From a virus (Duplodnaviria > Caudoviricetes), in the IMG/VR virus record IMGVR_UViG_3300032258_000006, positions 1-36,272 of that record: a stretch of 36,272 bases of DNA; one strand, given 5' to 3'. Positions within the stretch are counted from its first letter, which is position 1. Every line of letters begins with the position of its first letter. The position numbers and the translations under genes were made by a program. The notes under the pieces are model-generated. The model made no database searches and was not told the DNA's origin. It worked only from the letters and a program-made list of their open reading frames with translations. Below are positions 1-25,467 of the stretch, piece by piece.

Positions 1-132
1 AGCAGGTCAGAGACTACTTCAAGAGCAAGCAGAAAAAATAACGGTTGTAGGCTTTGCGCCAAAGTGACGCAATCACCGCAGATATTGCGGGTTATACGTC
101 ACTTTGGGGTATAACCATTGTTATGTGTCAGT
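1..132. repeat. Terminal direct repeat (copy 1; copy 2 at 36141-36272), indicating a circular/complete phage contig
   Basis: 1-126 identical to 36141-36266; one mismatch (g127 vs a36267), then tcagt matches. Confidence 0.95.
76..126 (+). other. attI-like array-terminal site A, ending in GTTATGT; overlaps a hairpin (ccaaagtgacg...cgtcactttgg) between convergent genes
   Basis: 35/51 identical by hand alignment to reverse complement of 28150-28200; both copies sit at the first position of an attC array on its top strand. Confidence 0.55.
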
Positions 133-325
133 AACAGCCTTGGGAATCAGCAAAGCTTTCGTTGATCAGCTTTTCCCTCTGATATTCAAGTTCGGCTTTT
201 ACTGCCTTCTCCATCGGGCTGCCTTTAGCTACCCTCTCTAGTGCCTTTTCACCATGATCGTCAACCATCGATTTGGCGAAAAAGCTTCTCGCCGGTGTGC
301 CTTTAAGCTTTACAGTTTTACCCAT
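128..325 (-). CDS. Cassette 1 hypothetical protein (65 aa)
   Basis: ATG at 325 with AGGAG RBS; stop abuts site A. Confidence 0.75.
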   Translation of the reverse strand: MGKTVKLKGTPARSFFAKSMVDDHGEKALERVAKGSPMEKAVKAELEYQREKLINESFADSQGCY

Positions 326-346
326 TAAAATCACTCCTAAGTTGCC

Positions 347-432
347 ACATAACAAAAGCCATAAAACTGGACTCTGTTACCTCGGCGTTTTTGTTAATAT
401 TTAAGTGTCGCCATTTATGGCAAATGTTAGCT
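347..432 (+). other. attC-like site
   Basis: ACATAAC...gccataaaactgg / ccatttatggc...GTTAGCT imperfect palindrome, extra bases on left arm. Confidence 0.75.
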
Positions 433-642
433 ATCTACTCGCTCAGCTAGGGCGTCTAGCGCTGGACCGTATTCAGGCCAATCGCTTTCTATTACAAGCG
501 CATCGATAGAGCTTTTTCCGTTATCCCTCCGGCCGTCATCAACAAGCTCACACAGCGCTGTAAGCGTTATCGTTTCATCTCCGTTCAAATACTGCTCAAC
601 ATCAGTTAGTTTTAGTACGATGTATCTGTTTTCGAGTTCCAT
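427..642 (-). CDS. Cassette 2 phage hypothetical protein (RYIVLK...ESDWPEY type)
   Basis: ATG 642 with GGAGG RBS; TAA stop is the complement of TTA in GTTAGCT. Confidence 0.8.
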   Translation of the reverse strand: MELENRYIVLKLTDVEQYLNGDETITLTALCELVDDGRRDNGKSSIDALVIESDWPEYGPALDALAERVDS

Positions 643-654
643 ACCAGCCTCCAC

Positions 655-743
655 AGCTAACAATTATTTTCAAATTGACGCCTTGCGCGTCCGTTCTTTG
701 CTTCATGCGCCGTTAGTGGCGCAACTTAAAATGGTAGTTATGT
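655..743 (+). other. attC-like site (family copy 1)
   Basis: AGCTAAC aatta ttt[C]aaattg[A]cgcc ... ggcg-caactt-aaa atggta GTTATGT. Confidence 0.88.
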
Positions 744-745
744 TG

Positions 746-976
746 CTACTCTTCCGTGCCGTGTATTGCATGAAAAGCAGCTTCTTCGTTTAGCTTTGCC
801 AGCTCTGGCGCAAGGGCGTTTATAGCTTCCAAAGCATGGCACTTCATTTTATGCTGTTCGTTGAAATACCTCATAGAAGTCAGCACCTCCAAGCATTCCT
901 GTAGCCTCTTATCAGTGAGGGGTGGTATTTCTGCTTTCGGTACATATTCAACATCCCCGATCATCACCTTTTCCAC
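746..976 (-). CDS. Cassette 3 hypothetical protein (KVMIGDVEYVP N-terminus)
   Basis: GTG start with AGGAGAG RBS; ORF fills the interval between attC sites. Confidence 0.8.
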   Translation of the reverse strand: MEKVMIGDVEYVPKAEIPPLTDKRLQECLEVLTSMRYFNEQHKMKCHALEAINALAPELAKLNEEAAFHAIHGTEE

Positions 977-999
977 TTCACTCTCCTATTTATCGTGCA

Positions 1000-1088
1000 A
1001 CATAACAATTATCTTCAAATTGACGCCTTACGCGTCCGTTCTTTGCTTCATGCACCATTAGTGGCGCAACTTAAAATGGTAGTTATGG
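1000..1088 (+). other. attC-like site (family copy 2)
   Basis: Near-identical to 655-743; ACATAAC...GTTATGG. Confidence 0.85.
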
Positions 1089-1499
1089 CGATATATCCCA
1101 CTTTGCCAATTCAATGGCTTTTCGGCGTGTTTCTAAATGAGCCTCACCAAATCCAGAGCATTTCTGCTGAAAGTAAGTTATATCTTCGCCTGCCTGCTGT
1201 ATCGCTATTAGGTAATACTGCTCTACCCATGAGTGATCTAAAACAAATCGGCCTTGCGCGGTTCCTCGCTCAAATACCTTATCTGGCTGTCTTGGGTCGA
1301 TTACTACCGTTTCAATCTCGAATCCGCGCTCTCTACACATGCTTTTAACGCGCTCAGCTTCCTTGCGATCTGCAAAACCTACTCGGTCGCCTTCTTTCAA
1401 TCCTTCAACCATTGATACAGTTCGCCCTGTCCTGCGAGCCGATTGAAAATATGTGTGTGACATGCCTTTCATTGCCTGGTAAATTCCAAAAATGTCCAT
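1083..1499 (-). CDS. Cassette 4 hypothetical protein with degenerate P-loop-like ARRTGRT motif
   Basis: ATG with GGAG RBS; stop embedded in the R' box. Confidence 0.8.
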   Translation of the reverse strand: MDIFGIYQAMKGMSHTYFQSARRTGRTVSMVEGLKEGDRVGFADRKEAERVKSMCRERGFEIETVVIDPRQPDKVFERGTAQGRFVLDHSWVEQYYLIAIQQAGEDITYFQQKCSGFGEAHLETRRKAIELAKWDISP

Positions 1500-1529
1500 C
1501 GTCGTGTCTCCAAAATCGTGTTAATCGCG

Positions 1530-1599
1530 CCATAACAAGCGCATACATCGGATAAACCTACGCTGCGCTACGGTTGACCGCTGATGCAGGTCGTTAGGC
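1530..1599 (+). other. attC-like site
   Basis: CCATAAC aagcg cat[A]catcgg[A]taaacc ... ggttga-ccgctg-atg caggtc GTTAGGC. Confidence 0.9.
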
Positions 1600-1809
1600 G
1601 TCAATCACTATGCTGGTCAGTATATAGTCACCTATTAGATTTCTAGTCTTTATAGACTCAGTGTCTAGCTCCTCCATTGCAAGACCGCGTAATTCATTCA
1701 GATTCACATCCTCACGAAAGTCTCGCAGCAATCTTCCGGTAATCGGCATCCCGCTACCGCCTTGATGATTGTCCCATTGCAGTGCTGTATAATTTATTTC
1801 TATAATCAT
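1594..1809 (-). CDS. Cassette 5 hypothetical protein (71 aa)
   Basis: ATG 1809 with GAGG RBS; stop in R' box. Confidence 0.7.
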   Translation of the reverse strand: MIIEINYTALQWDNHQGGSGMPITGRLLRDFREDVNLNELRGLAMEELDTESIKTRNLIGDYILTSIVIDA

Positions 1810-1844
1810 TCTAATAATCCTCAGTTTTAAGTGGCTCCGTTCAC

Positions 1845-1904
1845 GCCTAACAATTAAATCAAGGCGACACGGTAAAGCTGTGCGCCTTATTTGCGCAGTT
1901 ATGC
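1845..1904 (+). other. attC-like site, 60-nt '59-be' type
   Basis: GCCTAAC aatta aat[C]aaggcg[A]cac ... gtg-cgcctt-att tgcgca GTTATGC. Confidence 0.92.
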
Positions 1905-2165
1905 TGCCTTGTTGCCAGTTCCAGGTGTAATTGACCACCACTCAATAACCTCATCACCCTCGTACTGTAATAGCTCAATCATTGAGTCCTCGCTAATCCA
2001 TTTATTATCCCTGTCAACGTAGGCTAAGAGGTTGATGATTTGCCCATCACCCATGCAGTTATCTTTATAACGGATAGCCACTATTTCGTTGGCAGCAGGC
2101 ATAACAAGCCGTTCGTTTTGACCATCAACCGCGTGGTCTTGTTTGTTTTTATTTTGCTCTGGCAT
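1899..2165 (-). CDS. Cassette 6 hypothetical protein; N-terminus encoded inside the attC
   Basis: ATG 2165 with purine-rich RBS inside site 2099-2225; alternative ATG in the R'' box. Confidence 0.7.
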   Translation of the reverse strand: MPEQNKNKQDHAVDGQNERLVMPAANEIVAIRYKDNCMGDGQIINLLAYVDRDNKWISEDSMIELLQYEGDEVIEWWSITPGTGNKAA

Positions 2166-2225
2166 TTCACCTACCCTCTTAAATTCATCTCTCGGTTGCT
2201 GGCAACACAACATAAAATGTTAGGC
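2099..2225 (+). other. Long attC-like site (127 nt) containing antisense RBS and ATG
   Basis: GCATAAC aagcc gtt[C]gttttg[A]ccatcaaccg ... cggttgctgg-caacac-aac ataaaat GTTAGGC. Confidence 0.85.
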
Positions 2226-2226
2226 G

Positions 2227-2502
2227 TCAATCTAAAAGGTCTTCGCTAGTTGCGCTTGAATATAGTGGGGTATACGTACCTCTACAAAAATAATTCTCAT
2301 CGCAAGAAGGGCAGCATACCTCTTCCATTTCTTCTTTGGGCGCAATAGCAAACAGATCATTGTTACTATCAATCATCTCATCATCGGTCATGGTGTAGTC
2401 ACATCGGGGGCATGTTGGCTTGCAGTCATCACGCCTAACAATCTCATTGTTCTGACCCGCTACCGCATCAGTCTTTGATGTTTCAGCTTGTTCGTTGCTC
2501 AT
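2227..2502 (-). CDS. Cassette 7 putative zinc-ribbon protein (CPRC...CPSC); N-terminus encoded inside the attC
   Basis: Two CxxC motifs; ATG 2502 with AAGGA RBS inside site 2433-2561. Confidence 0.75.
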   Translation of the reverse strand: MSNEQAETSKTDAVAGQNNEIVRRDDCKPTCPRCDYTMTDDEMIDSNNDLFAIAPKEEMEEVCCPSCDENYFCRGTYTPLYSSATSEDLLD

Positions 2503-2561
2503 CGTTTCAATCCTTAATTTGGTGCATTTTGTCGCAGGCAGCACATGCTAGTCAGTTATGC
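2433..2561 (+). other. Long attC-like site (129 nt) containing antisense RBS and ATG
   Basis: GCCTAAC aatct cat[T]gttctg[A]cccgctac ... gtcgcagg-cagcac-atg ctagtca GTTATGC. Confidence 0.85.
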
Positions 2562-2563
2562 GG

Positions 2564-2770
2564 CTACTCGTAGCCTGCGTATTCTAGGTAATCACAAAAC
2601 GATGTGCGTTGTGCAAATCGCGTCTTGTATTTCTCATTAAACTCCTTAACGGCTAATTTCATGCGCCCTTCAAAGGCTGCTAGGGTTTCACAGCACCCTT
2701 GGTTGTCATGCTCTTTTAGCCATCCCATCAGCTTCAGTTTCATCTCGCTTTTTTTCATCGTGATCTCCAT
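2564..2770 (-). CDS. Cassette 8 hypothetical protein
   Basis: ORF fills the interval between two attC sites; start may be a downstream Met after GGAG. Confidence 0.7.
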   Translation of the reverse strand: MEITMKKSEMKLKLMGWLKEHDNQGCCETLAAFEGRMKLAVKEFNEKYKTRFAQRTSFCDYLEYAGYE

Positions 2771-2777
2771 ACGCGCC

Positions 2778-2865
2778 GTATAACAAATATTTTCAAATTG
2801 ACGCTTTCCGCGCCACTCGTTACTTCATGCGCCGTTAGTGGCGCAACTTAAAATGGTAGTTATGT
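2778..2865 (+). other. attC-like site (family copy 3)
   Basis: GTATAAC aaata ttt[C]aaattg[A]cgc ... gcg-caactt-aaa atggta GTTATGT; right half identical to 655-743. Confidence 0.87.
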
Positions 2866-3135
2866 TGCCTTTAATCTTTCTAGATCAATAAAAACAGCCA
2901 GTCTTTTGTAGCCATTCGGCTCAACCGATCTAATTGTCTTTTTTACTCCTGAGATTATTGTTAACTTTTTTAGTTCAACGCAGTCAAAGCATGGAGTATC
3001 AACTTCAACATTAAAAAATATTTTAGTTTGATGCACCTGTAAGCCGCCAAAATAAGGGCAACAATTAAGTAAAAGTCCTGTATGCTTTTTAATAAAAGAC
3101 AACGCTAAGTCTATAATTTCGTTCTCGTGCATCAA
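2860..3135 (-). CDS. Cassette 9 hypothetical protein, AT-rich
   Basis: GAGG RBS; stop in R' box of 2778-2865. Confidence 0.7.
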   Translation of the reverse strand: MMHENEIIDLALSFIKKHTGLLLNCCPYFGGLQVHQTKIFFNVEVDTPCFDCVELKKLTIISGVKKTIRSVEPNGYKRLAVFIDLERLKAT

Positions 3136-3157
3136 TCTTTCCTCTTGTGTAAGTGCA

Positions 3158-3177
3158 ACATAACATAAGTGTTATCT
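3158..3177. other. Collapsed att-like core ACATAAC-6nt-GTTATCT
   Basis: R''- and R'-like heptamers 6 nt apart, exactly between cassette 9 and the initiator stop codon. Confidence 0.45.
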
Positions 3178-3179
3178 GG

Positions 3180-3941
3180 TCAATCAAGATCAGGTTTCCA
3201 TGGTTTGTGTGATTGCGCTCCGGTAGATTTAACACCATCACTCGACTTAGCAAGGCCTCCCGCCATCCACTCAGCCTTGAAACCCACCCAGGAGCGTTCG
3301 GCAGCCTCGCCAATGCAGTCATCCACACTCAAGCCCTGTTTAGCAGCTAAATGTAATTGCTTGCCTATCCCGTTGATTGCGGTTTGCGTGTTGCTGGCTT
3401 TCTTTTTTCTCCTAACCTCCATCCAGTCAGCCATGATTTGATCATCTGGCAATGATGGCCATCCAGAATAATCGAGATTTTTATAATTCTTAGGCTTAGC
3501 TTTAGCCTTGGGCTTGGGCTCGATATTTACATTATTTACATTATTTACATTATTTACATTCTTATCTGTTGCGATTTCGCTGTCATCCTGCTGCGATTTC
3601 GCTGTCACTTGCTTGTCATCTTGCTTGTCACTGTCTTGCCATGAATTGTACTTAATCACCGCTACGATGCGGCTTTTAGCCTGCGATTTGCTTGTTATGT
3701 CGCCTGTTGAAATGAGTTTCTTTATTGAGGTTCTTAGCTGGCTTATAGTTAAGCCGGTTTCTTTTGATAATGAATCAAGAGAAGTAAGTAACGATCCTCG
3801 GTTGATTTCAATTCCACGCCATTTACTATCAGAGTGGTTAGCTCTAAGTAAAAAATGAACAAACAGGCGGCAAGTGTTTTGGTCGCTGTACCACTCCCAG
3901 CCCAATAGCTCACGATGAAGTTTTATCCACCCATGCGCCAC
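3180..3941 (-). CDS. Phage replication initiator (lambda O-like / replisome organizer)
   Basis: GWIKLHR N-terminus, wHTH-like segment, repeat-rich linker, C-terminal W.GF..EW motif; follows Cro-like gene. Confidence 0.85.
   Translation of the reverse strand: MAHGWIKLHRELLGWEWYSDQNTCRLFVHFLLRANHSDSKWRGIEINRGSLLTSLDSLSKETGLTISQLRTSIKKLISTGDITSKSQAKSRIVAVIKYNSWQDSDKQDDKQVTAKSQQDDSEIATDKNVNNVNNVNNVNIEPKPKAKAKPKNYKNLDYSGWPSLPDDQIMADWMEVRRKKKASNTQTAINGIGKQLHLAAKQGLSVDDCIGEAAERSWVGFKAEWMAGGLAKSSDGVKSTGAQSHKPWKPDLD
3525..3697. repeat. Putative replication origin inside the initiator gene
   Basis: (atttacatt)x4 at 3525-3560 next to iteron-like tgcgatttcgctgtca at 3570 and 3592, cttgcttgtca x2, and tgcgatttgcttgtta at 3682. 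Confidence 0.6.
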
Positions 3942-3943: not shown

Positions 3944-4165
3944 TTAACCCTTTTCGCCTTTGCGAATAAAATCAGCGGCGCTTATTCCAAAGTACTCTGA
4001 AAGCATTTCTATGTTTTTACCACTCATCACTGTGGACCTGCGCAATGTGCTTACCGTTGTTGCTGATATATTGAGATGCTCACCAAGCTCGCCGGCCGGA
4101 ATATCTCGATCTGTCATTAATAACCTTAGGGACCGTCCACAGTCCATTGTTGGTATGCTCATCAA
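3944..4165 (-). CDS. XRE/Cro-like HTH regulator
   Basis: Small HTH pattern (ELGEHLNISATTVSTLRR...LSEYFGIS) at the head of the replication operon. Confidence 0.8.
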   Translation of the reverse strand: MMSIPTMDCGRSLRLLMTDRDIPAGELGEHLNISATTVSTLRRSTVMSGKNIEMLSEYFGISAADFIRKGEKG

Positions 4166-8286: not shown

Positions 8287-10710
8287 TTACTCATTTGCAA
8301 TGTAAGTTGCAGAGAATCTTATGAGATTTGCATTAGCTCCTGTCCCCGCATTTGTGTATGGTAAGGTAGCCGTTGCACCATTTGCAGTAGCCCTATATAA
8401 AAGATAAAACTGTGATGTCCCACCAAGAATATAAGCATCACACGGGTGATTTGTCGACCATGATGATGATGTAGCAATATTAACCCCTGAATATCCATCA
8501 TTTGACGATCCGGTATTTGAATCAGCCTGGAACGGAAGTCCTATTATTCTTAGGTTTCCTGCAGCCGAACCAACAGTAATAGAGTCTGTTCTTAATGCAC
8601 CTTGGATATGCACAAGTTTTCCAACCTTGACATATTTTCCGCCCGTCAAGGCGTCATAAGTTACCGAATCAAAATCTGTCCCATCCGCCTCAAGGACTGG
8701 TGTCCATGTGCCCTCTTCATAATCGTCTAGAACATTAGCATCAGTTGACTTAAAGGTATTATCGAAATCAACGCCAGTAATAGCGCGGTTTTGTGACCAT
8801 TGGCTACTTGTGCTAATAGCCGACCCCGTCTCGTCCTCGGTAAAAATACCATCGATTATAGTGGAGCCATCACAGTCCTTAACTTTCATCACCGCAACAC
8901 CACCGGCAACATTCAGCCTAAATGGTTTATTTGATGCGTTTATGGTTGGGTATGTTGTACCGTGACCGAAAGCCCTATCAATATAGCATGTGCCTTTATC
9001 TGCTATCACGGCCCTGCTAGCGTTTGAGGCTCCGAAGTGATTCATACCTGTAATTCTTACGGCGCTGGATGATGTGGCGGCATTTACATATACATGAGCA
9101 AGTACCGGCCCTTCTACCCACACATTTTCAAGCACATTTTCAGAAAACGATTGAGCAGTTATCTCGATGTTATAGCCAATATTATCACCAGCAGCCCAGT
9201 AGTTGGTTTCATACGATCCGCCTATCACTCTCGTGCCATTTGCAAGCCCTTTTATCAACAGACCAGCGGCGTCATTTCTAAACGCATGACAATTGACCAA
9301 CATATTTTGGTTGGATGGGAAAGTGGATGGGGTTAGATCACCCCAGAATTGAATGCCCTCATCAATAACAAATCCAGCGCCTACATTGTTACCTGAAACG
9401 CAGCTTTCGGCCTTAACCAGTAGAGCCTGTCTTAACACTATTCCGTGACTACCGCACTGGAAAACAGACAGATTCTCAAGTTTGCAATCAAACATTCTAA
9501 GCGTGTCAATGCCGATCTGGCTAGTCTTTGTTAGATCGCCTTGTACCGCGAAATTAGCAAGCCTTATACCTGTTTTATTGTACGTTCCAAAGCCGCTTGT
9601 TACTTTGTTTCTAATGATGGCACCATCGAAGGTAGATCTAAATATGGTGGATGTTTTGCCGGAACCAACCAAGCTGACAGTTTCAGGCACTTCTATCTGT
9701 GTAATATCAAGAAATCCAGATGGAGCCGTAACAGTCGCACCGCCACTTTCACCAAAAATTGAGTTGTTAGCATCTGTAGAGCCGGTTATCAGTGTTAGAT
9801 TTCTAGCTGATTCCATAGCATTTTGCACGCCATTAGTATAATCAGCAGCAGCAAAAGTATGATGACGTAAAACATGGTGGTAAGGGTAAGATGTATTTGT
9901 GACGCCGATTTCCCAATCTGGATTAACCGGGTAATATGTAACAATAGAGCCATCAGAGCCTAGTGATTGTATGGTTAGCGAAGCTGATGTCATGCTTGCA
10001 TGCACTGTTGAAGCTGCATTTGATGTATCACGCACATTTTCAACAACAACATCGGTATGAGTAGAGAAAGAAAAATAGCTTATGGTGGCGTAACGATCAC
10101 CGCCTCCTGACATCTTTACTATCATCCCAATTGACAATTCAGAGGTTCTATCTACATTTTCATAGCGATATGATGTATCGGTAAGCTTAACCGCCACTGA
10201 TGAATCTTGATATAGACCTGGAAACCCCGCAAGTATGGATGGAAGGAGTGAATTCACAAGTCTACCCGATTGGTTCCATACCATGGCCTGCCCTTCCGCT
10301 GGCGATGGAAGAACATTAAGATCAGGCGCTCTAGACTCCGTATTAATAAATTGTAAGCCACGATAATTTAGATTTCTCTCAATTTCTTGAGCCTTAAGCC
10401 ACAGCCTATCGATATCCTCGTTAACCGTAAGCGCCCTGAAATCACCAGAATTCTGATAATCGATAACCCGTGTTGTTGGCATTTCTCTCAAAAGAAGAAC
10501 AACCGAACCATTAACCGGGTTGGTTGAAAAGGTTACGCTACCGCCGCCATTATCACCAACACCGGAAACAGTGAACCCCGAAGTCTGTATTACAGTATCA
10601 ACATACAACCCCAACTCACTTTCATCATCAATTCTGAATTCATAAGCGAAAACGGCGGTTGATCCATTCGCTACATGGGTGCTAATGGGTGTTTCAGCTG
10701 GTACTGTCAT
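8287..10710 (-). CDS. Tail fibre/spike with T7 gp17-like N-terminal anchor and beta-helix domain
   Basis: ANGSTAVFAYEF...LNED.DRLW-type anchor, pectate-lyase-like repeats, LDDYEEGTWTP C-terminal motif; start trimmed to ATG 10710. Confidence 0.88.
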   Translation of the reverse strand: MTVPAETPISTHVANGSTAVFAYEFRIDDESELGLYVDTVIQTSGFTVSGVGDNGGGSVTFSTNPVNGSVVLLLREMPTTRVIDYQNSGDFRALTVNEDIDRLWLKAQEIERNLNYRGLQFINTESRAPDLNVLPSPAEGQAMVWNQSGRLVNSLLPSILAGFPGLYQDSSVAVKLTDTSYRYENVDRTSELSIGMIVKMSGGGDRYATISYFSFSTHTDVVVENVRDTSNAASTVHASMTSASLTIQSLGSDGSIVTYYPVNPDWEIGVTNTSYPYHHVLRHHTFAAADYTNGVQNAMESARNLTLITGSTDANNSIFGESGGATVTAPSGFLDITQIEVPETVSLVGSGKTSTIFRSTFDGAIIRNKVTSGFGTYNKTGIRLANFAVQGDLTKTSQIGIDTLRMFDCKLENLSVFQCGSHGIVLRQALLVKAESCVSGNNVGAGFVIDEGIQFWGDLTPSTFPSNQNMLVNCHAFRNDAAGLLIKGLANGTRVIGGSYETNYWAAGDNIGYNIEITAQSFSENVLENVWVEGPVLAHVYVNAATSSSAVRITGMNHFGASNASRAVIADKGTCYIDRAFGHGTTYPTINASNKPFRLNVAGGVAVMKVKDCDGSTIIDGIFTEDETGSAISTSSQWSQNRAITGVDFDNTFKSTDANVLDDYEEGTWTPVLEADGTDFDSVTYDALTGGKYVKVGKLVHIQGALRTDSITVGSAAGNLRIIGLPFQADSNTGSSNDGYSGVNIATSSSWSTNHPCDAYILGGTSQFYLLYRATANGATATLPYTNAGTGANANLIRFSATYIANE

Positions 10711-12313
10711 AATCTGTCTCCACTTCAAAGGTTCCGTGATCTGGTCGCCAGTTATCACGCGTATTATCGGCGGTATCCCCGCCCTTTCCTATTCTAATCG
10801 GTGTTGCTGTAATGGCACCCGCTCCACTATCCAGGTGGCCGTCTGGTTGCTCTATCACTTTCGGGTTCCATTCCGTCATTTCATCCCACAAAGCACCATC
10901 TAACACATCAACATGCGCCCAAAGGAAACCAGAATCTAAAGGGGCCTCCCATGCGTCTAGAATGCGCTTGTTTTTATTCTTTGTCTCGTGGTTCTCACCA
11001 ACACCACAACCCGTACCTTTCAAGTGATTGCGCAAAATATGAGGAACATGAGTACCAACACCATTGGTTTCAACATCAACCCGTGGTAATTGGTATTTTT
11101 TCACATATTTTTTAACCTCTCTGCACTGCTCATCGATATTACCAAGTAAGCCAATACAAACCTGAAGGTAGAGCCGCCCTTTTTCATCGGTAAGCACCAC
11201 AGAAAAAGCACTTGTATCGTTATTGATCTTGCCTGATGCACAATCCCACTTAGTAGCCGCGCCCACAATCTGTACATTACCAAGCCACATTGTAACTTTT
11301 CTGTTTGTGTGGCGTATTACCGGTGCAACGTCATACGGTATTATCTTCTCAGGGTTAAGCCTGATATCTTGTATTGGCTTGGCGTGTAATTGGTATTGAC
11401 TATCCCATTCATTGAATGTTGTGCACTCCTTACGCCTCCACTCCATTTCTTCATGGTCGAATCTTTCAGGCCATGCGCTATCTGCGTATAAATCAACCGT
11501 TGCTCCTGGTGGCTTGGTGAAAATTATATCATTTCCATCAAGCACATAGTCTGGACCTTCTTTTGCTACCCAGCTATATTCACCAATGCCAACAAATACA
11601 AATTCCGGTGAAAACTTACATGAAAACCTTGTTTTAGTTGCTACATTATCTTCAAATCGCTGTTCTAAACCATACATCCTGATTGTTAGATCTTCAGCAC
11701 CCGCTTTTATCTTTTCATCATATATCGATTTATGGCTGTGAGGTGTGCCTATGAAATCCTTTTGCGCACCTGGTACTGCAATGTGTATTTGCTCACTCAG
11801 CCGGTGGCGCACCTTTTCCCGCGCTTCTGGAGTTGATACGTTCTTCTGAACCTCCACATCATCATTCTGTATGTAATCAGCACGTGATGATGTTATATTT
11901 TTAAGTATGCCTGCCGCTTGCATTCCAGGGTTTCTCGGGTCTTTTTCATAGCCCTCCTTTGTCCACCAGAATTCTACTTGGCCGCTTAGATTAGGCCCGA
12001 TAGAGTCCCTCGTTAGCGGGTGTTTCTCAAGTATGTTCTTTGTATCTCGTGATGCTTTATAGGCGGTTTTATCATCAGCGCCTTGGTGTAATATCTGCCT
12101 TTTTGGATTGCGGTAGTAAAGCCACGCATTATAAACACCTAATATCGTTGATTTTCCGCAACCACGAAAAACACGTAGGACACGAATACGAGAACCACAA
12201 AACTCAAGAAAATGACAAATAGCAATGTGAATGTCAGGCACTTCCCAGCCTTGGAAATCAGCCCATAACAGAAAGAACACTGCAAATGATACCTTCTTCT
12301 TTTCACGTGGCAT
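10694..12313 (-). CDS. terL: Terminase large subunit
   Basis: FRGCGKST Walker A, NDDVE Walker B, GTPH, RNase H-like C-terminal domain (VETNGVG, PDGHLDS). Confidence 0.93.
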   Translation of the reverse strand: MPREKKKVSFAVFFLLWADFQGWEVPDIHIAICHFLEFCGSRIRVLRVFRGCGKSTILGVYNAWLYYRNPKRQILHQGADDKTAYKASRDTKNILEKHPLTRDSIGPNLSGQVEFWWTKEGYEKDPRNPGMQAAGILKNITSSRADYIQNDDVEVQKNVSTPEAREKVRHRLSEQIHIAVPGAQKDFIGTPHSHKSIYDEKIKAGAEDLTIRMYGLEQRFEDNVATKTRFSCKFSPEFVFVGIGEYSWVAKEGPDYVLDGNDIIFTKPPGATVDLYADSAWPERFDHEEMEWRRKECTTFNEWDSQYQLHAKPIQDIRLNPEKIIPYDVAPVIRHTNRKVTMWLGNVQIVGAATKWDCASGKINNDTSAFSVVLTDEKGRLYLQVCIGLLGNIDEQCREVKKYVKKYQLPRVDVETNGVGTHVPHILRNHLKGTGCGVGENHETKNKNKRILDAWEAPLDSGFLWAHVDVLDGALWDEMTEWNPKVIEQPDGHLDSGAGAITATPIRIGKGGDTADNTRDNWRPDHGTFEVETDYDSTS

Positions 12314-12319
12314 TCACTT

Positions 12320-12658
12320 CTACTTTACTACTTTCATTTTTTTACGCTGCTCGAAGCGCTTCAATTGTTCACTCGCGGCTTTTTCGTGCCTGGCTATGTC
12401 CTTGTCTAAATTATCATCCTCTTGAGTGTTACCGTCATCAGGCACCCCTTTAACGCCAAAGGAATCAATCTTGTTGATCAAGGTAAGCGTGGCCGCTGCA
12501 TTCTTCTTGCACCAATAGCGGTCGCCTCGCTCCTCCTTAGTCATATCCATTGGCAAAACATCCTTTCCTGGCCAATTATCGGGATCAGCTTCGATCAAAA
12601 CAGAATCAATAAGCTTGTCTTGTAGATCCTGCAGAAGCTTAATTTGATCTTGACGCAT
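12320..12658 (-). CDS. Probable terminase small subunit
   Basis: Immediately upstream of terL; EADP..WPG...RGDRYWCKKNAAAT motif. Confidence 0.65.
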   Translation of the reverse strand: MRQDQIKLLQDLQDKLIDSVLIEADPDNWPGKDVLPMDMTKEERGDRYWCKKNAAATLTLINKIDSFGVKGVPDDGNTQEDDNLDKDIARHEKAASEQLKRFEQRKKMKVVK

Positions 12659-12669
12659 AAACCACCCCT

Positions 12670-14991
12670 TTAATCTGGTATTGCCGCACCCATATCAGGT
12701 GCGCGCTGTGGTGCTATGTCTCCAGGCTTCCACCAATATTCCTGGCCATACTCACTTGAACGCTTTCTCATTTGCCGATGGAATTTTGATTGAGCGTCTG
12801 GATCCGCCAGTAACTCCATTTGATCAAAGAAGGCGTTGCTAATAAGGTAGGTTTGCCACACATCTGGCGTATACCTATCTAGAATTTTAACCGACTCACC
12901 TAGTATATTTGTTTCTTCACCTTGCACGGCTTCACGAATATTGCCAAGTGTGAATTTAGCTGTAGTATCTAGCAGCTCACCAACTGGACCAGTAAATGTT
13001 TGAGTAAGGCCACCACCGAATCTATTCACATCTGAAAAAATAAAGTCACCAAAAATGCCCAGACCGCCACCCTGTAGCATTGATGCCCCCAGGAATTTAA
13101 GATCCATTTCTCTCGGGTCTCTCCCTGCTGTGATATCCTTCATCTGCAAGGATATTCCACCTAAAATTGTCGTAGTGGCCAATATAGCGCCAATATACAC
13201 GAGCCTATCCGCTGCTGTTGCTTGATAGGCCGCTCTATAGAAGTGGGTCATGATGATAGTAGCGGGAAACGATTTAAACATCATTGATGAGCGCCATACT
13301 TGACCATCAATGGTTGCGCGCCCTGTACCGCCGTTCATTATAGCTCGAACCTTGGCATCTGGTGTTGGTACTGCAAAATCTGTCTCACTCATTACCATCT
13401 GGTGAAACTTTTCACTGCCAGGTTGAGTCATATCAGCAAATTTAACGCCTTTATGCTCCAGTGTCTTGCTTGCGCTAAAATGCGTCCAATCATCTGGAGT
13501 TATCCCGTACTCATCAAAAGCGCGCAACAAATCCTTGTCAAGGCTGCTGTATTTCTTGCTGAAGTTCTCGGCAAGCAGCGCGCCAAACTCCATGCCAAAC
13601 CCCTTCCGCCCTGCATGAGTCCAAGGCTCAAGAAGAGAGGCCCGCATAACGCCCTCTGCAACCTTCGCGGTTGGCCCGCTTCCATAAGTATCTGCATGTC
13701 TATTGGCAGCGTGCATTCTACCCGTCATAGCATCACCAACAAGACCCATTTTAACGGCGAAAACTTGAGACTCTTCATTGGTCATCAGGCTCATATGCCT
13801 TTTAAGCACCTTCAGCGCTGGTATGGTGTTTCGCTTTGAGGTAACAACCTGAAACCCAACATCGGACACCGCAGACAAGAATGCCCGACCAAGTGTTGAA
13901 GCAACAATTACATTTCTTACACTTTGACCAATATCAGAAACGGTGGTCATATCACCCTCGTTAACCTTTCCGCTAATATTGGCGTAAACGCCTTTAGCAA
14001 ACCATTTCTTGTGACCGGCAAGACCGCCCATGTCCTTCTCAGCCATTCCAAGCAATGATTTAAACGTAGCGTCAGGGGATGGGCCGAATATTTCCATCAG
14101 TGCGTTGTCATGGCTCATCATGTCAATATGATCAGTTAACGTACCAAAAACATCACCCCGCCCGAAATCTCTTTGATACTCCATCCAGCTCTCAGCATCC
14201 TTGAAATATAGAAATCTTCTATCACTATTTTTACGGGCTAGTTTTTTACCAAGGCGTGGAACCGTTAAATCTTTAACCTTATTAAGGCCGTGAGTTGTAA
14301 TACTGTCGTAGGTATAATCAAGCGCCTCATCTAACTGCTTGCCGGTTAACGGATTGCCAGCATCATCAAGCATCTGACCTAAATCGAGCTTTGGCGTTAT
14401 TCTCTTCTTCCACTCATCAAGGCCTATTTTAGCAATGGCCCTTGCGTCATGGTGTTGCGGCATTAAATAGCGCTGATTATTCCCTATTGATCCACCACGG
14501 GCGTTAAAGTCTTTTCTCATGCGCTCATTAAGGGAAAGCCAATCTTTGGCAAACTCCATCAATTGAGGGTCATCTACCTTTTCACCATAGATAGCCTTAG
14601 CGAACAATTGCAAATCATCTTGGTTTTGATAAAAGCCTAAAGCACGAGTTCTAAAGCGCTGCAACATGTCAGCTACTTCAGCGTGATATTGCCCCGCGTA
14701 ATATTTTTGTAGGTATTCAACATTTGCATAGCCAGATTTTCCGGTTCGATCCTTAGACATTAGAGAAAGCAGCCCTTCATAAGCGCCTTCTGGGTGACTC
14801 TCTGCTTTTGCCCATGCCTCAGATAGCCTAACCGCCTGAATCACTGTCTCACGCTTCTGCCTGCTTAACTGAGCAACTATACTAGTTAACTCAGCATCAA
14901 CATCATCAGCAGCCTTTAGGCGCTCGGCAACGTCCTTAGTGATCTTCCCAGCCTTTTGAGCTTGGGTTATGCAAACATCGAAACTAGCCAA
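12670..14991 (-). CDS. Internal virion (ejection) protein
   Basis: Large helical protein with GGGLGIFGDF segment; T7 gp16-like position; TTG start with GGAG. Confidence 0.75.
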   Translation of the reverse strand: MASFDVCITQAQKAGKITKDVAERLKAADDVDAELTSIVAQLSRQKRETVIQAVRLSEAWAKAESHPEGAYEGLLSLMSKDRTGKSGYANVEYLQKYYAGQYHAEVADMLQRFRTRALGFYQNQDDLQLFAKAIYGEKVDDPQLMEFAKDWLSLNERMRKDFNARGGSIGNNQRYLMPQHHDARAIAKIGLDEWKKRITPKLDLGQMLDDAGNPLTGKQLDEALDYTYDSITTHGLNKVKDLTVPRLGKKLARKNSDRRFLYFKDAESWMEYQRDFGRGDVFGTLTDHIDMMSHDNALMEIFGPSPDATFKSLLGMAEKDMGGLAGHKKWFAKGVYANISGKVNEGDMTTVSDIGQSVRNVIVASTLGRAFLSAVSDVGFQVVTSKRNTIPALKVLKRHMSLMTNEESQVFAVKMGLVGDAMTGRMHAANRHADTYGSGPTAKVAEGVMRASLLEPWTHAGRKGFGMEFGALLAENFSKKYSSLDKDLLRAFDEYGITPDDWTHFSASKTLEHKGVKFADMTQPGSEKFHQMVMSETDFAVPTPDAKVRAIMNGGTGRATIDGQVWRSSMMFKSFPATIIMTHFYRAAYQATAADRLVYIGAILATTTILGGISLQMKDITAGRDPREMDLKFLGASMLQGGGLGIFGDFIFSDVNRFGGGLTQTFTGPVGELLDTTAKFTLGNIREAVQGEETNILGESVKILDRYTPDVWQTYLISNAFFDQMELLADPDAQSKFHRQMRKRSSEYGQEYWWKPGDIAPQRAPDMGAAIPD

Positions 14992-15121
14992 GGAAGACTA
15001 CTCCAACCTGTAGAAGCAGAGTAGATATAAAAACAAAGCCAAGTATCGCCCACTTGCGGTTTATCTTCTTATCATGCGCGGCTTTCATCTGCCCTACTTC
15101 TCTATAGAAATCAGACCACAT
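14984..15121 (-). CDS. Small membrane protein (45 aa, not in ORF track)
   Basis: MWSDFYREVGQMKAAHDKKINRKWAILGFVFISTLLLQVGVVFLG fills the gap between ejection genes. Confidence 0.5.
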   Translation of the reverse strand: MWSDFYREVGQMKAAHDKKINRKWAILGFVFISTLLLQVGVVFLG

Positions 15122-15134
15122 TTCCTGCGTTTCC

Positions 15135-16658
15135 TTATCCATATATACACCTCAACACATCATCTAAACCTTGAATCTCTTCATCGTATGACTTAACCAG
15201 CGCCGCAGCATCTACAGCCTCGCCATCAACATCCATTACTTTATTGTCCAGCCGGTTAAACTTAGCCATATCCTCATTATAGACTTCATCTAGCCCTTGC
15301 GCCTTAAGAATGTCATGCTCTCTTTGTGACGCGGTTGAGACCGGTGCTTTTGGCTTGACCTGTTGAGCGGGTGGCGGCTCATAAATCGATTTATCTTTGG
15401 ATGGTGGCGCGTACTGCTTGGCGCGGTTATCCATTTCTTTTAGGTATTCAATATCGTTTTTAACTTGCTGCGCGTGAATGTCAGTGGAAACTTGCTTTAT
15501 ATCAACGGCATCAACTGCTTTCATTCTGTCACCGGCAGGCTTTAAGGCGTTAAACTCCTTAAACATTTCTCCTTGATGAATGCCTTTAGCCTTCATCGCC
15601 TTGTATGCCTCAGCCGGAATGAAAACGGCCTTTATCTTAACGCCGTCACGCTTTGCTATTTCTGCGCGGTGATGGCCGTCTAATATTTTCAACCCACCTT
15701 CGTCCTGCACCGCAACAATGGGCTTGCTTGAATCGCCCTTGTAACTTGATATATCCTTTCCATGCTCTGTTTTTACTAGTATATGCGGGTCAACCTCGTA
15801 TAAGTACGGGTTCTTTTCACTTACCTTTTTAATTGAGTCCTCGTTGAAAATGATCTTCTCAGAGCCTTTCAATGTATCCTCTTGACGCTGCAAAGACTCC
15901 TTAGCGGTTTTTAGCTCAGGTGTTTCTGGCAACTCATCAGCCGTTTCTCTAACTTTTCGCAGCCAACCAGAAAGACCACCGGTTACACCACCGATAACAC
16001 CAGCACCAGTGGCGGCCATGGCAACATTAGCCAAAGCATCTCCCGCTGAGTAAGGGGAGTCTATCTCTTGTTTGTGCTGGTAAACGAACGCCTGAATACC
16101 TATCTCAGTAGCACCGCCAATAACAGCGGCATTTCTAGCGGTTAGCGCGGCACGGCCAATAATACTAATTGCCTTTGCTGTTACGGCAGGCGTGGCAATG
16201 CCCACGGTGAGAATATTTACAGGGTCAAGCATGTAGCCATTCATTGCCCCAAGAAATTGAGCGGTACCGGAACCACGAGAAATAACCTCTTGTGAATAAT
16301 CACGGCGGCTTTTCAGCAGTGCATTACGCTCGGTTGTTAGCTGGTCATCTGTTTTTATGTCGTCGCGCTTAAGGTCGCCAGCCACTTTATTGTAATCAAT
16401 AGCCTTGAACCCTGAGCGCGGCCTATACTGATCGACATTATCAAGCTCGCCAGACTCAACCATTTTATCAATAATAGCTTTTCGCTGAGACCAGCCCTCA
16501 CGATTTAACGATGTGGATATTGAAAGCTCTTCATCGATAACATAACCAAGAGAGGCATCGAATACTTCACTGAATTCGGCTTCCTGCATTTTTTGGTGAT
16601 CATATGGCGTGAAATTATCAAGCACCTCACTTTGTGATGATTTATTAATTAAAGGCAT
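15135..16658 (-). CDS. Internal virion protein with inserted ParB/Srx-like domain
   Basis: Gly/Ala-rich hydrophobic helices (DPVNIL...) plus PIVAV...ILDGHHR motif. Confidence 0.72.
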   Translation of the reverse strand: MPLINKSSQSEVLDNFTPYDHQKMQEAEFSEVFDASLGYVIDEELSISTSLNREGWSQRKAIIDKMVESGELDNVDQYRPRSGFKAIDYNKVAGDLKRDDIKTDDQLTTERNALLKSRRDYSQEVISRGSGTAQFLGAMNGYMLDPVNILTVGIATPAVTAKAISIIGRAALTARNAAVIGGATEIGIQAFVYQHKQEIDSPYSAGDALANVAMAATGAGVIGGVTGGLSGWLRKVRETADELPETPELKTAKESLQRQEDTLKGSEKIIFNEDSIKKVSEKNPYLYEVDPHILVKTEHGKDISSYKGDSSKPIVAVQDEGGLKILDGHHRAEIAKRDGVKIKAVFIPAEAYKAMKAKGIHQGEMFKEFNALKPAGDRMKAVDAVDIKQVSTDIHAQQVKNDIEYLKEMDNRAKQYAPPSKDKSIYEPPPAQQVKPKAPVSTASQREHDILKAQGLDEVYNEDMAKFNRLDNKVMDVDGEAVDAAALVKSYDEEIQGLDDVLRCIYG

Positions 16659-18642
16659 TGAATAGCCCCCCGCCTTGCTTTAGGCGCTCCCTTTCTTCAT
16701 CAGACATTTCACGTTCAAATTTGGCTTTTGACTGAGCTTTTTTAGTTATCGACATGGCCAATGAATCTCGTTTTAACTTATCCGCATCAAATGAAAGCAG
16801 AAATGGCTTGCTACCGTCACCAGTCATCAACATAGCATCATTAACTATTACCGCGTAACGGTTGTTTGCCACCCCGATAATTCCAGTTTGAGGCTTTCTA
16901 ATTAGATCGGATACCTGCTTATCACTCATACCCCACACACCACCATGCTCTGCTACTGTCTCAGAAGAAACGGAATCTATATAATCAGTGAAATCACCCT
17001 TGTCAATGCCCCGTGGAAGCTCTAACTTTTCCCCTCTAATTACACCTATTCCACCAGAAACGGATTTGATTGCATCTTCAAAGCTATCGTCTGAGAAAAA
17101 TCCGCTTTCTAATCCTGGCGCGTTGAGGCTGGCATAATATGCAACCGATGCATCAAACATATGTACGCGATCTCTACCTACATACGCCCCGCCAACAATA
17201 GAGTCAAATGCTGACAATAGCGTTTTGCTGTCTTCGTCAAGGTTGATCATCTTATCTTTTAGAAGCTGCTGACCTTTGAATACACCTTCCATGATGCTGG
17301 GGTCACCAATCGCGCCAGTCATTGCAAAAAGGCCGGCGTTTTTCCTGTCCAACTGACTCCATACAGCGTCATTATCCCTAAAAGATAGAGCCATTAACAC
17401 TTTTTGTTTCGGGGTACTACTCGGCAAAAGGTCGACAAATAAACCAGCTTCATCCTCCGAAAGTGGGGGAATAGGCCGGCCATAGTGAACGCTAAGATAC
17501 TCAGCCTGCTCTAGACGAGCCTGAAATGATGTAGGATCGTTTAAATCAATCGGGATCTCTTTAATTATGTCTTGCTTTACAGCGAAACCATAAGCGTCCT
17601 TGTCTAGCTCGGATTCTATTGTCTCGCTAGCATTCTCAAGGTTAAATCTAAGCTCAGCGCCTTGAACGCCATGCGCCTCTGTAATTTCACCAAGCATTTT
17701 ATCTCTAGTGGCCTTGGGAAGTGTGATAAATTTACTTGACCCCTTGGCTATCATTAGCTCTTCCTGAAGCCCTGCAAGTGGCGCAGCAAGTTCAGCTGAG
17801 GCAAGCTCATCATCTCGCACCAGGTAGTTATTGTTTAAGGATAGAATGGTATCTTTTACTAATTCAGTGGCCTGCTTTTTGGCTGCTACTGTAGATTTGT
17901 TTTTCACCTGGGCAATCTCAGTTATTGCCATGGCTTCGAATTGGCTTTGCTCTTCAGCGCTCAGCGCTTCGTATTCATTATTTCGAATGCTCTCAAGTGC
18001 CGCTAGAGGATCTTTACCTATATCCTGCCTTACCTTTCCTCGGCTAAGATCCTTTTTGAACTTCTTAATCTTGGCTTGATACTCTTCTGAGTCGATGACC
18101 CCAACCTCAAGGGAATGAGCCATAAGCGCATCACCTTTAGAAACCACTTCGTCAAACTGATCTTGATCGCCCCTAATAGCAATACCTGCTAAATCATCAA
18201 GTGAAGAGTCCAAGATAGCCTGTTGCTCTATAGCGTCCTGCTTGAGCACGTTTGACTTAATATCCAACCCTTTGTTGAATGCGAATTTATCAACATTCTT
18301 GCGCCACACATCAAACTGCTGCTTATTACCGAATCGCTCTTCATAACGCCCTTCAAGTTCATCATAGAACTCTTTATAGCGGGTGTTTTGTGTGCCGTAG
18401 TCACGATCTTCATTTTTAAATTCAAACGCCTTTGATTCTATTTCCTTCAGCGCTTCAGTTGTCGCCCCTGCTAGCTCCATGTCTTTGCGGTTTTGCTCAT
18501 AAGCCAAAATAGTATCAGCGCCAACATTGGCCAGATTGCGCATTGACTCAGCAGCCTGATCTAACCCGCCTACGCTAGGCACACCGCGCTGCGGTTCAAG
18601 CGTCTTTTGCCCTAACTCATTACCAAGATTAATTACAGGCAT
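16645..18642 (-). CDS. Internal virion (ejection) protein
   Basis: 665-aa helical protein in T7 gp15-like position. Confidence 0.7.
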   Translation of the reverse strand: MPVINLGNELGQKTLEPQRGVPSVGGLDQAAESMRNLANVGADTILAYEQNRKDMELAGATTEALKEIESKAFEFKNEDRDYGTQNTRYKEFYDELEGRYEERFGNKQQFDVWRKNVDKFAFNKGLDIKSNVLKQDAIEQQAILDSSLDDLAGIAIRGDQDQFDEVVSKGDALMAHSLEVGVIDSEEYQAKIKKFKKDLSRGKVRQDIGKDPLAALESIRNNEYEALSAEEQSQFEAMAITEIAQVKNKSTVAAKKQATELVKDTILSLNNNYLVRDDELASAELAAPLAGLQEELMIAKGSSKFITLPKATRDKMLGEITEAHGVQGAELRFNLENASETIESELDKDAYGFAVKQDIIKEIPIDLNDPTSFQARLEQAEYLSVHYGRPIPPLSEDEAGLFVDLLPSSTPKQKVLMALSFRDNDAVWSQLDRKNAGLFAMTGAIGDPSIMEGVFKGQQLLKDKMINLDEDSKTLLSAFDSIVGGAYVGRDRVHMFDASVAYYASLNAPGLESGFFSDDSFEDAIKSVSGGIGVIRGEKLELPRGIDKGDFTDYIDSVSSETVAEHGGVWGMSDKQVSDLIRKPQTGIIGVANNRYAVIVNDAMLMTGDGSKPFLLSFDADKLKRDSLAMSITKKAQSKAKFEREMSDEERERLKQGGGLFNAFN

Positions 18643-19097
18643 TACTTAGCCACCTCACTACCATACCACCCAGCCTGCCCACCGATGGAAATAGCCGATG
18701 ATGCAAAGTTAGCGACTCCAGCAGTTGCCGCTTGACTACCACGTAAACTAAAAACATCGGCCTGCTGTCGTAGTGCGGTGGCCCTGTCTCCAGCGTTTAA
18801 AGTTTCAGTGAAAGCGTCTTGCTCGGTTCTTTCGACAATATCCTTATTAATCAAGTTGCCGGTAACGCTATCAATATCAACACCTGATGCGGCCATTGCA
18901 GCTCTAGCACTTGCAGCAATACGCTTTCCGCGCTCCCGTGTTTTGGCGGCGCGCATTTCACCCGCTTGCTTTTCAGTCTCAGCGTTGGCGTTGGCCTGAT
19001 CTGCTTGAAACCCAGCAATATCTTGCTGATTCTTAACGGTCACAGCCGTACCAACAGCAGTCGCGGCAAGAGCGGCAAATTCAAATCCGGTGCACAT
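18642..19097 (-). CDS. Internal virion protein (T7 gp14-like)
   Basis: MC start, Ala-rich, ARAAMAASGVD motif; start trimmed to ATG 19097. Confidence 0.75.
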   Translation of the reverse strand: MCTGFEFAALAATAVGTAVTVKNQQDIAGFQADQANANAETEKQAGEMRAAKTRERGKRIAASARAAMAASGVDIDSVTGNLINKDIVERTEQDAFTETLNAGDRATALRQQADVFSLRGSQAATAGVANFASSAISIGGQAGWYGSEVAK

Positions 19098-19098
19098 G

Positions 19099-19554
19099 CT
19101 AAACACTCCCCATTGACATAATAGAACCAAACTTTTCAAACCCACAAAGGCTATATAATTTTTCAGTTTCTTGAACATTAACACCGGTTGATATTCCAGC
19201 CGTGATAAATTCTGGCTTAACACCTTTTGACTTTGCCCACTCTGCATATTGCTTGGCAAGCTTCAATGATGAGCGTTGCCCCCTGAATTCTTTTTTAACA
19301 AACAAGGCGAAATCACCAGCCATTAAATCGTCACTAAACCAATGGGGCGACACGTAGCCAATAAACCCGCCAACAACCCGACAATCAACCTCGACCACTA
19401 GGAATAGGTAATCTTCAGAGTCCACAGCTAGCGTAAATAAATGAGCCACTTTTTCAACATTATAATCAAGCTCTGAAAATCTGCTTTCTTGGTGCATTTC
19501 ATAGCCGAGATAAATTAACGGCTCCAAGTCGCTATATATTGCTGGTCTTATCAT
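19099..19554 (-). CDS. GNAT acetyltransferase-fold protein (T7 gp13 position)
   Basis: MIRPA...D, LFVKKEFRG, LY..CGF motifs. Confidence 0.82.
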   Translation of the reverse strand: MIRPAIYSDLEPLIYLGYEMHQESRFSELDYNVEKVAHLFTLAVDSEDYLFLVVEVDCRVVGGFIGYVSPHWFSDDLMAGDFALFVKKEFRGQRSSLKLAKQYAEWAKSKGVKPEFITAGISTGVNVQETEKLYSLCGFEKFGSIMSMGSV

Positions 19555-21998: not shown

Positions 21999-22353
21999 GC
22001 GCTAGAACCTTTTCGAGAGTTTCATCAATTTCCATGGCATCACACATGATAGTGATCACAGAATCAAAGATGGCGCGCTCTGTATCTTCGCCAACAAACG
22101 GGATATTAATTTTACTATTGATAACATCTACCAGCCGGCCTTTCATTCCAACCGAAGTTCCACGCTCGATACCGGTGGCAGCATCCTGCATTAAAGCGAC
22201 GAACTCAGCGGGTAAATACTCCTCAACCTCTACGGAAATGCGCTCAACAGCCCACGCAACTGCACGCACTTCTAGAAATTCAGGCACGTATGGAATATCA
22301 ATAGAACCGGCTACTTTTTCCGCAATAGAATCAATCTGGTTTTCAGTAAACAC
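21991..22353 (-). CDS. Hypothetical protein with internal DIP.V/NIPFV repeat
   Basis: GTG start with GGAG; follows lysozyme. Confidence 0.65.
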   Translation of the reverse strand: MFTENQIDSIAEKVAGSIDIPYVPEFLEVRAVAWAVERISVEVEEYLPAEFVALMQDAATGIERGTSVGMKGRLVDVINSKINIPFVGEDTERAIFDSVITIMCDAMEIDETLEKVLARG

Positions 22354-22357
22354 AATA

Positions 22358-22798: not shown

Positions 22799-22812
22799 AT
22801 TAACCTCAATAG

Positions 22813-23424: not shown

Positions 23425-23439
23425 GGATTATTATCTCCT

Positions 23440-23467
23440 AAAAAGTACCCGCATATTTCAGCGGGTA
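23440..23467 (-). terminator. Intrinsic terminator after cement gene
   Basis: acccgc-loop-gcgggt followed by a U-run on the minus strand. Confidence 0.55.
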
Positions 23468-23485
23468 AATAACAAGGGGGGAAGA

Positions 23486-23968: not shown

Positions 23969-24025
23969 TTTAATTAACTCCTAAAAAATTTTGATTTCCG
24001 CGCCTGTGACGGCGCGGGTTAACTA

Positions 24026-24889: not shown

Positions 24890-25011
24890 TGTCTTAACCT
24901 CATTAATTATGCCTTGCAGGTTATCCTATTCGGGCCTAGTACAAACATGCTGTCGGCTTAGCACATTCGGGCGTGTAGGTTATTCGGGTGCCATCCCGAG
25001 CCTATGCGCTA

Positions 25012-25191: not shown

Positions 25192-25226
25192 TTAATCAAC
25201 ATCAACAAACACAGAGAGTAAACAAA

Positions 25227-25466: not shown

Positions 25467-25467
25467 A

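Follow-up and report, generated by a model that had tools for sequence, protein, structure and literature searches.

The stretch of DNA considered here (the window) is the whole of IMG/VR virus record IMGVR_UViG_3300032258_000006, 36,272 nucleotides from a tailed phage (Duplodnaviria; Caudoviricetes), and it carries two groups of integron-type recombination sites (attC) with small genes between them. In both groups the genes lie antisense to the attC top strand, the reverse of the canonical layout. We consider it likely that the two groups form an integron-type system without an integrase of its own, in which genes are carried on the attC bottom strand and an integron integrase (IntI) of the host moves cassettes at an attI-like site.

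Ten full attC-like sites are present, eight in the left group between 347 and 2865 and two in the right group; a remnant site stands at the end of the left group. The sites are as follows, with the strand being that of the attC top strand and with the two strand tests explained below.

347 to 432, plus strand: attC S1, a weak model call (E 1.1) and a tie in the arm test
655 to 743, plus strand: attC S2, of a three-copy family; arm test and covariance model
1000 to 1088, plus strand: attC S3, 95% identical to S2; arm test and covariance model
1530 to 1599, plus strand: attC S4; arm test and covariance model
1845 to 1904, plus strand: attC S5, a textbook 60-nt site; covariance model (39.9 bits), arm test and folding
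2099 to 2225, plus strand: attC S6, with a long loop; arm test and covariance model
2433 to 2561, plus strand: attC S7, with a long loop; arm test and covariance model
2778 to 2865, plus strand: attC S8, of the family of S2 and S3; arm test and covariance model
3158 to 3177, plus strand: remnant site (R'' ACATAAC, 6 nt, GTTATCT) without a hairpin body, closing the last cassette beside the stop of the replication gene
26820 to 26888, minus strand: attC R1; the upstream gene stops in its core at 26825
27814 to 27934, minus strand: attC R2, with a long loop holding a ribosome site and an ATG (27859); its R' core, GTTACCC, is degenerate and its model call weak

The ten sites are 60 to 129 nt long (the criterion was a distance of 55 to 140 nt between cores), with R'' cores of the form RYYYAAC and R' cores of the form GTTRRRY, from which some cores deviate (GTTAGCT, GTTACCC). 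They also have L'' and L' boxes, a central spacer that stays unpaired and extrahelical bases, which lie on the R''-L'' arm; S1 is ambiguous in the arm test. The sequences of the sites are mostly dissimilar (mean column identity 45%). In the accessible text of PMC9892861, a CALIN is a cluster of at least two attC sites within about 3 kb without intI; here there are eight sites in 2.5 kb and two in 1.1 kb. No match to TIGR02249 or PF00589, that is, to an integron integrase or any tyrosine recombinase, was found in the six frames of the window. The group is thus a CALIN by definition, and neither a complete integron nor a canonical cassette array.

Two tests were used to call strand direction. 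Covariance model R1 was trained on 25 attC sites, taken from the Shewanella M16-3 integron and from genomes of bacteria, where gene and site are co-directional; none comes from the window. It places all eight left sites on the plus strand and both right sites on the minus strand, the same directions that a first-pass annotation of this DNA had read from the extrahelical bases in ten of ten sites. The model never puts the top strand on the coding strand, and no opposite-strand match at E <= 5 was returned for any of the ten. The calls have E <= 0.065 at eight sites and are weak at S1 and R2 (E 1.8 at the latter). In the arm test, the arms of each site are scored on both strands for two extrahelical bases. 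The result is clear at seven of the eight left sites (10-13.3 versus 5.9-7.9) and tied at S1 (8.0 versus 7.9); on the right it is narrow at 26820 (7.3 versus 6.6) and clear at 27814 (8.0 versus 5.3). Seven sites are clear in both tests, and the attC controls TJE1 and M16-3 scored canonical.

The bulges in the window sites are spaced as three pairs, an extra C, six pairs and an extra A, which is identical to the spacing in the top strand of attCaadA7 (Table S3 in the accessible part of PMC9892861). By definition the extrahelical bases are on the R''-L'' arm, and they set the strand choice (PMC2727003, accessible text). The first-pass annotation had proposed folding both strands as a way to assign polarity; the scoring of extrahelical bases does so at most sites, whereas free folding of eight sites, with only 1845 to 1904 (plus strand) reaching a z below -2, does not settle the polarity. 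Chance hairpins were rejected as a source of the sites because the cores match from cassette to cassette and the sites match the covariance model.

Each left cassette consists of one minus-strand open reading frame (ORF). The cassette genes are:

128 to 325, minus strand: 65 amino acids, no family; ribosome site AGGAG
427 to 642, minus strand: 71 amino acids, similar to phrog_7810; stop in a core; homologues are a cassette gene in viral contig L080 and a plain gene in viral contig L078
746 to 976, minus strand: 76 amino acids, no family; ribosome site
1083 to 1499, minus strand: 138 amino acids, resembling mostly viral hypothetical clusters; stop in a core; ribosome site
1594 to 1809, minus strand: 71 amino acids, frame open to 1941 through S5; stop in a core; ribosome site
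1899 to 2165, minus strand: 88 amino acids; ribosome site and ATG in the S6 loop, stop in the S5 core
2227 to 2502, minus strand: 91 amino acids, Cys-rich; ribosome site and ATG in the S7 loop
2564 to 2758, minus strand: 64 amino acids, no family; ribosome site
2860 to 3132, minus strand: 90 amino acids; stop in a core; ribosome site
27859 to 28155, plus strand: 98 amino acids; ribosome site and ATG in the R2 loop; the R box of the entry site on the right holds its stop

A ribosome-site match is found at nine of nine left minus-strand genes and at one of eight plus-strand ORFs; on this ground the latter were rejected as the cassette genes. On the right, one of the three genes tested has such a match. 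Between gene 427-642 and its L080 homologue there are 57 base changes, 38 of them at third positions, with no stops (31 synonymous and 14 non-synonymous codons); against the L078 homologue the codons divide into 12 synonymous and 12 non-synonymous. The ribosome sites, and the synonymous-biased change in the one gene with homologues, confirm that the genes are antisense to the attC top strand. Canonical co-directionality fails for nine of nine left genes and for the right-hand genes.

Eight genes use the TTA of a GTTA core as their stop, as had been noticed at first reading: 427, 1083, 1594, 1899 and 2860 on the minus strand and 26825, 27819 and 28155 on the plus strand. The core at 28155 is part of the right entry site and not of an attC. 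In the four remaining left genes the stop lies 1-2 bases past the core, and three genes (starts at 2165, 2502 and 27859) have their ribosome site and ATG within the upstream hairpin loop. Among the cassette proteins, those of 1083-1499 and 427-642 resemble clusters that are 64-80% viral, and no Pfam, PADLOC or NCBIfam match was obtained for any. In the viral contigs searched, gene 746-976 has no relative and gene 2227-2502 found only itself. The proteins of 746-976 and 27859-28155 have a common N-terminal stretch, KV-x-I-x-x-VEY-x-P.

The cassettes have moved, as the complementarity of cores across cassettes indicates. R'' complements the preceding R' in eight of nine left cassettes (permutation p=5.5e-5), and 26 of 27 variable core bases are matched between R'' and the previous R', compared with 14 of 27 within sites; the R'' of S8 has one mismatch. 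The reading of the right group as an array stands in part: it has two attC sites and an entry site, but three ORFs lie between the attC sites, and their cores are unmatched (GTTACCC versus ACATAAC).

At the top-strand 5' end of each array there is a 37-bp element that we take as a putative attI-like entry site, and a third, partial copy lies beside the left one:

90 to 126, plus strand: left entry site, with an upstream GGTTATAC box, an L-like GGTATAA, a 5-bp spacer and R box GTTATGT (120 to 126); the attI role is predicted
36 to 85, minus strand: inverted partial copy, whose GTTATTT core holds the stop of the protease-like gene; forms a strong hairpin with 90 to 126 (z -5.3)
28150 to 28186, minus strand: right entry site, R box GTTATGC, with the ssb gene next to it

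The left and right entry sites are identical at 28 of 37 positions, and the left R box complements R'' of the first cassette. The pattern of the element matches the window three times, where 0.02 matches are expected, and two of the three are the same site in the end overlap of the record (132 bp with one mismatch; the phage genome is 36,140 bp). A search of viral contigs with this pattern gave no match. A close match to the element heads the reversed array of viral contig L161 (0/2000 shuffles), and looser ones head other viral arrays. The spacing of the boxes (L-5-R) resembles that of attI1 as seen in L106. The attI role would also agree with G360, the one viral record with a full IntI among the 45 tested (L233:5182-9073; L145), in which an R box 28 bp from the start of intI is followed by six attC in canonical position and the genes are antisense; this fixes the place of attI in a reversed array. 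Up to and including the entry-site R box the two copies of the end overlap agree; at the next base they differ (127/36267), which may mark a variant first cassette.

The test of core complementarity is symmetric, and shows movement rather than the crossover side. The side is indicated by five cassette families common to viral contigs with different neighbours, all of which start at the GTTA of R'. In four of the five, the similarity begins at that GTTA, takes in both antisense gene and hairpin and ends at the next R', so that the crossover would be at R'; in the fifth the hairpins differ. Starts within the S6, S7 and R2 loops need the same side. These borders in other viral contigs suggest bottom-strand recombination by IntI with crossover in R'. 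Two cases are less regular. The family of L138, L145 and L159 has a hairpin body that differs at the R'' end. In L080, the similarity to gene 427-642 spans GTTAGCT to AGCTAACAA and the hairpin bodies on both sides are other ones; hairpins can therefore be exchanged or replaced.

In the mechanism that we propose, a cassette would extend from one attC crossover point to the next, with the hairpin ahead of its own gene. The host IntI would fold the bottom strand, cut G|TT of R' and insert cassettes at the entry site. The left entry site lies at the far, downstream end of the presumed early transcription unit, and leftward transcription would cross the replication gene and then the array before reaching it. 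Insertion of new cassettes would then occur at the point most distant from the promoter, opposite to what happens in a bacterial integron; in a host array these cassettes would be antisense to its promoter, Pc. The unit begins with two minus-strand genes, and the left array follows directly downstream of the second:

3944 to 4165, minus strand: Cro/CI-type helix-turn-helix gene (cro-like), heading the leftward early unit
3180 to 3941, minus strand: O-like or DnaD-like replication initiation gene (PHROGs), directly upstream of the left array

The earlier proposal that expression comes from phage early promoters at the far end agrees with this gene order and with the attI-like site at the opposite end, but promoter matches are at chance level: a sigma-70 match of 9/12 at 4224-4196 (minus strand) is one of 7 such matches, versus 8.7 by chance. 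Read-through from a leftward early promoter via the replication gene into the array is probable. A consensus scan for Pc found no plus-strand match between 1 and 1456. The related idea that the mRNA carries the recombinogenic hairpin holds only at the level of sequence: IntI acts on DNA, and free folding of most sites does not give the hairpin. Silence of such cassettes in a host integron would follow from the canonical geometry, with the qualification that one multi-gene unit has its own promoter-like site. This is TTGACA-17-TG-GATGAT at 26926-26954, inside the unit between attC R1 and R2.

To see how general the reversal is, as the first-pass annotation had suggested, ORF and attC polarity were tallied over phage-borne sites. 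A single search pattern yielded at least 126 viral loci; of the 301 genomes examined from one bacterial class, 13 had matches, with 14 sites in all. At the level of sites, 117 unique viral matches were listed and 75 passed hairpin and flank filters; among these 75, 31 are reversed, 11 canonical, 18 mixed and 15 uncalled. The 13 bacterial sites comprise 0 reversed, 10 canonical, 2 mixed and 1 uncalled (Fisher p=2e-5 versus viral). Some GC-rich shadow ORFs were taken as canonical in this tally (e.g. L113, L116). A second tally, at the level of cassettes, takes ribosome sites into account and excludes overlapping duplicate loci and cassettes <100 or >1100 bp. Here the viral cassettes among the matches listed (n=116) are 75 antisense, 8 sense, 4 tied and 29 uncalled, and bacterial and control cassettes (n=20) are 1 antisense, 12 sense, 0 tied and 7 uncalled; one prophage and one metagenome contig of phage-like character are counted as viral, and the counts ignore kinship. 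The reversed layout, which is the rule for this phage and frequent among phages, is not universal: TJE1 has the canonical one, and 8 of the 116 viral cassettes are sense.

Exact patterns for the S2 and S5 families gave no matches in viral contigs or genomes. With a looser pattern, 6 viral and 6 genome loci were obtained; real sites are present in 5 of the viral loci, in a Cellvibrio prophage (reversed) and in a bacterial contig (canonical). The prophage (L047:2815-5645) is lambdoid, in a Cellvibrio metagenome-assembled genome, and its reversed array lies between a Q-like antiterminator and a holin. The site in the bacterial contig, L048, is of the S2 family. Neither of these two genomes has a full intI. 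Viral contigs L087, L092, L177 and L178 have antisense genes bordered by sites that are almost the same as attCaadA7. In three cultured phages from the list of Qi et al. (KJ018214, HQ632860, KT160311), model R1 gave no match.

Three alternatives to this mechanism were weighed. If the top strand recombined at R'', the remnant at 3158 to 3177 would be a promoter-proximal attI and the cassettes would be conventional from the viewpoint of the mRNA, the reversal being confined to the strand that the integrase chooses. Read on the minus strand, the remnant is AGATAAC-6 nt-GTTATGT directly after the replication gene stop, and the symmetric core test is blind to this difference. We hold it quite improbable, because excision at R'' would remove the three starts that lie in upstream hairpin loops, four of the five common families have the hairpin 5' of the gene and borders at R', attI and intI of G360 are at the top-strand 5' end, and strand choice is set by the extrahelical bases (PMC2727003, accessible text). 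Very improbable, in turn, is that rare inverted cassettes were taken up as a block from a chromosomal integron of a host: inverted cassettes are 1/20 in the bacterial and control set, which makes nine of nine implausible, and the genes fall in viral protein clusters, one is a plain phage gene, and there are several site families. In its favour are the canonical S2-family site of L048 and the fact that phages do take up integron pieces (PMC9892861, accessible text).

An unlikely reading, to which we give somewhat more room, is that the array is a relic, assembled by an integrase in the past and now consisting of fixed phage genes, with any reshuffling due to phage homologous recombination at the hairpins. 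The lack of an integrase, the weak free folding, the body-less last site and the degenerate right core would all fit, as would the Erf-like, NinB and NinG genes of the phage and the 95% identity of S2 and S3. No excision joints were found in the contigs of one run, the sediment metagenome that contains this DNA and may be its source, which would fit as well; these contigs leave about 750-2840 uncovered and are uninformative on the point. No RNA run with this DNA was listed. Against a relic, the match of cores remains perfect in eight of nine pairs, neither entry site has decayed, and most sites are too dissimilar for homologous exchange.

Movement by a host IntI remains the likely explanation, and the present activity of the system and an accessory, possibly counter-defence, role of its genes are presumed extensions of it. 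Several points weigh against it. Two of the ten strand calls are weak, and most sites do not fold freely into a full hairpin (some chromosomal attC sites also have low folding propensity, according to the accessible text of PMC5371416). The S8 mismatch, the last site and the right core may mean that the array is partly frozen, and the cassettes of L080 and of L138, L145 and L159 leave undefined which hairpin travels with the gene. In sequence the entry site is unlike both the G360 attI (shuffle fraction 0.15) and attI1 (0.52). No host with the same attC family in an intI-linked array was found. The search pattern was written from the top-strand consensus, and few bacterial sites were available for comparison. 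Evidence for a counter-defence role comes from a different phage, G360, whose first cassette is a Tad2-like anti-defence gene and which has more recombinase-like ORFs nearby; no cassette protein of the window matched Pfam, PADLOC or NCBIfam.

A broader idea, which we put forward only tentatively, is that phages run a mirror image of the integron economy, with their own attI, a borrowed host IntI and cassettes minted from ordinary phage genes. Minting would place one core at the stop codon and another immediately 5' of the ribosome site. Gene 427-642 may be a before-and-after view of this. In L078:1365-1590 it is a plain phage gene without attC, with DNA 87% identical; its stop is aligned with the core, and the similarity stops just 5' of the ribosome site. 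With the cassettes here and in L080, the gene with and without attC flanks forms a concrete pair for the question of cassette origin. If the idea is right, accessory and counter-defence genes would circulate among phages while silent in bacterial arrays. Bacterial integrons are now viewed as libraries of anti-phage genes, and with a pool of reversed polarity on their own side phages could put the same enzyme of the host to work on accessory genes of theirs.

The same entry sites could also have given rise to an inversion in the phage genome. In the capsid relatives whose DNA was available (31 of 31), the major capsid gene is preceded by a protease-like gene at a distance of 149-372 bp, whereas in the window the two genes are apart and opposed. 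Compared with these 31 relatives, the segment of about 25000 to 36272, which extends from the second early region as far as the protease-like gene, is turned round with respect to 8287-24889. The protease stop, in the core of the inverted entry-site copy at 36 to 85, is one breakpoint; a GTTAAAT occurs at 25122, with the capsid start 232 bp downstream of it. The inversion might go back to an integrase acting at a secondary GTT site, a cause that we rate as possible though doubtful. One contig of sediment metagenome run X1 spans 1-730 without a joint.

Among known systems, the closest are the attC clusters without intI that Qi et al. 2023 described in phages such as TJE1 and Pseudoalteromonas phage PH101; sites of this kind were recombined by IntI1 with a bottom-strand preference (PMC9892861, accessible text). 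The likeness is in the clustered attC and the missing intI; Tetrasphaera phage TJE1 differs in its canonical polarity. The accessible text of that paper makes no mention of antisense genes, loop starts or attI-like entry sites in integrase-less lytic phage arrays. In the literature searched, which left most subscription journals out of scope, no description of systematically reversed phage cassettes was found. New here are the attI-like 37-bp site shared by both arrays and the occurrence of one cassette gene as a plain gene in another phage.

Bacterial integrons (class 1, chromosomal, and that of the Shewanella M16-3 prophage) have in common with the window the attC anatomy R''-L''-L'-R', the G|TT borders and, putatively in the window, a simple attI-like site at the top-strand 5' end. 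Unlike them, the window has no intI, its genes are on the bottom strand with the hairpin before the gene, stops are in R' instead of R'', and transcription would enter far from attI. Inverted, self-promoted cassettes of chromosomal integrons (e.g. toxin-antitoxin) also have an ORF opposite to the array, and are a minority with their own promoter; in the window every cassette is reversed, mostly without a promoter, and co-oriented with the phage early genes. Annotation tools that presume gene and attC to be co-directional would give each hairpin to the wrong gene.

The record has a completeness rating of 92%. Names from PHROGs include a podovirus-type structural set, terminase, Erf-like, SSB, methylase, NinB and NinG. 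By the arm test, 10 of 11 records of capsid relatives have no array (G017 has two sites), so that the array is not a trait of the structural clade. The window has no Rfam match, and BLAST of 1-3200 against named phages and plasmids gave zero matches. A 9-bp tandem repeat at 3524-3559, inside the replication gene, is a possible origin region; a second one is at 32161-32205, inside the ORF 32082-32483. The leader of the capsid gene (24890-25020) has motifs in common with that of the closest relative (L001:9850-10000), and is possibly a structured RNA.

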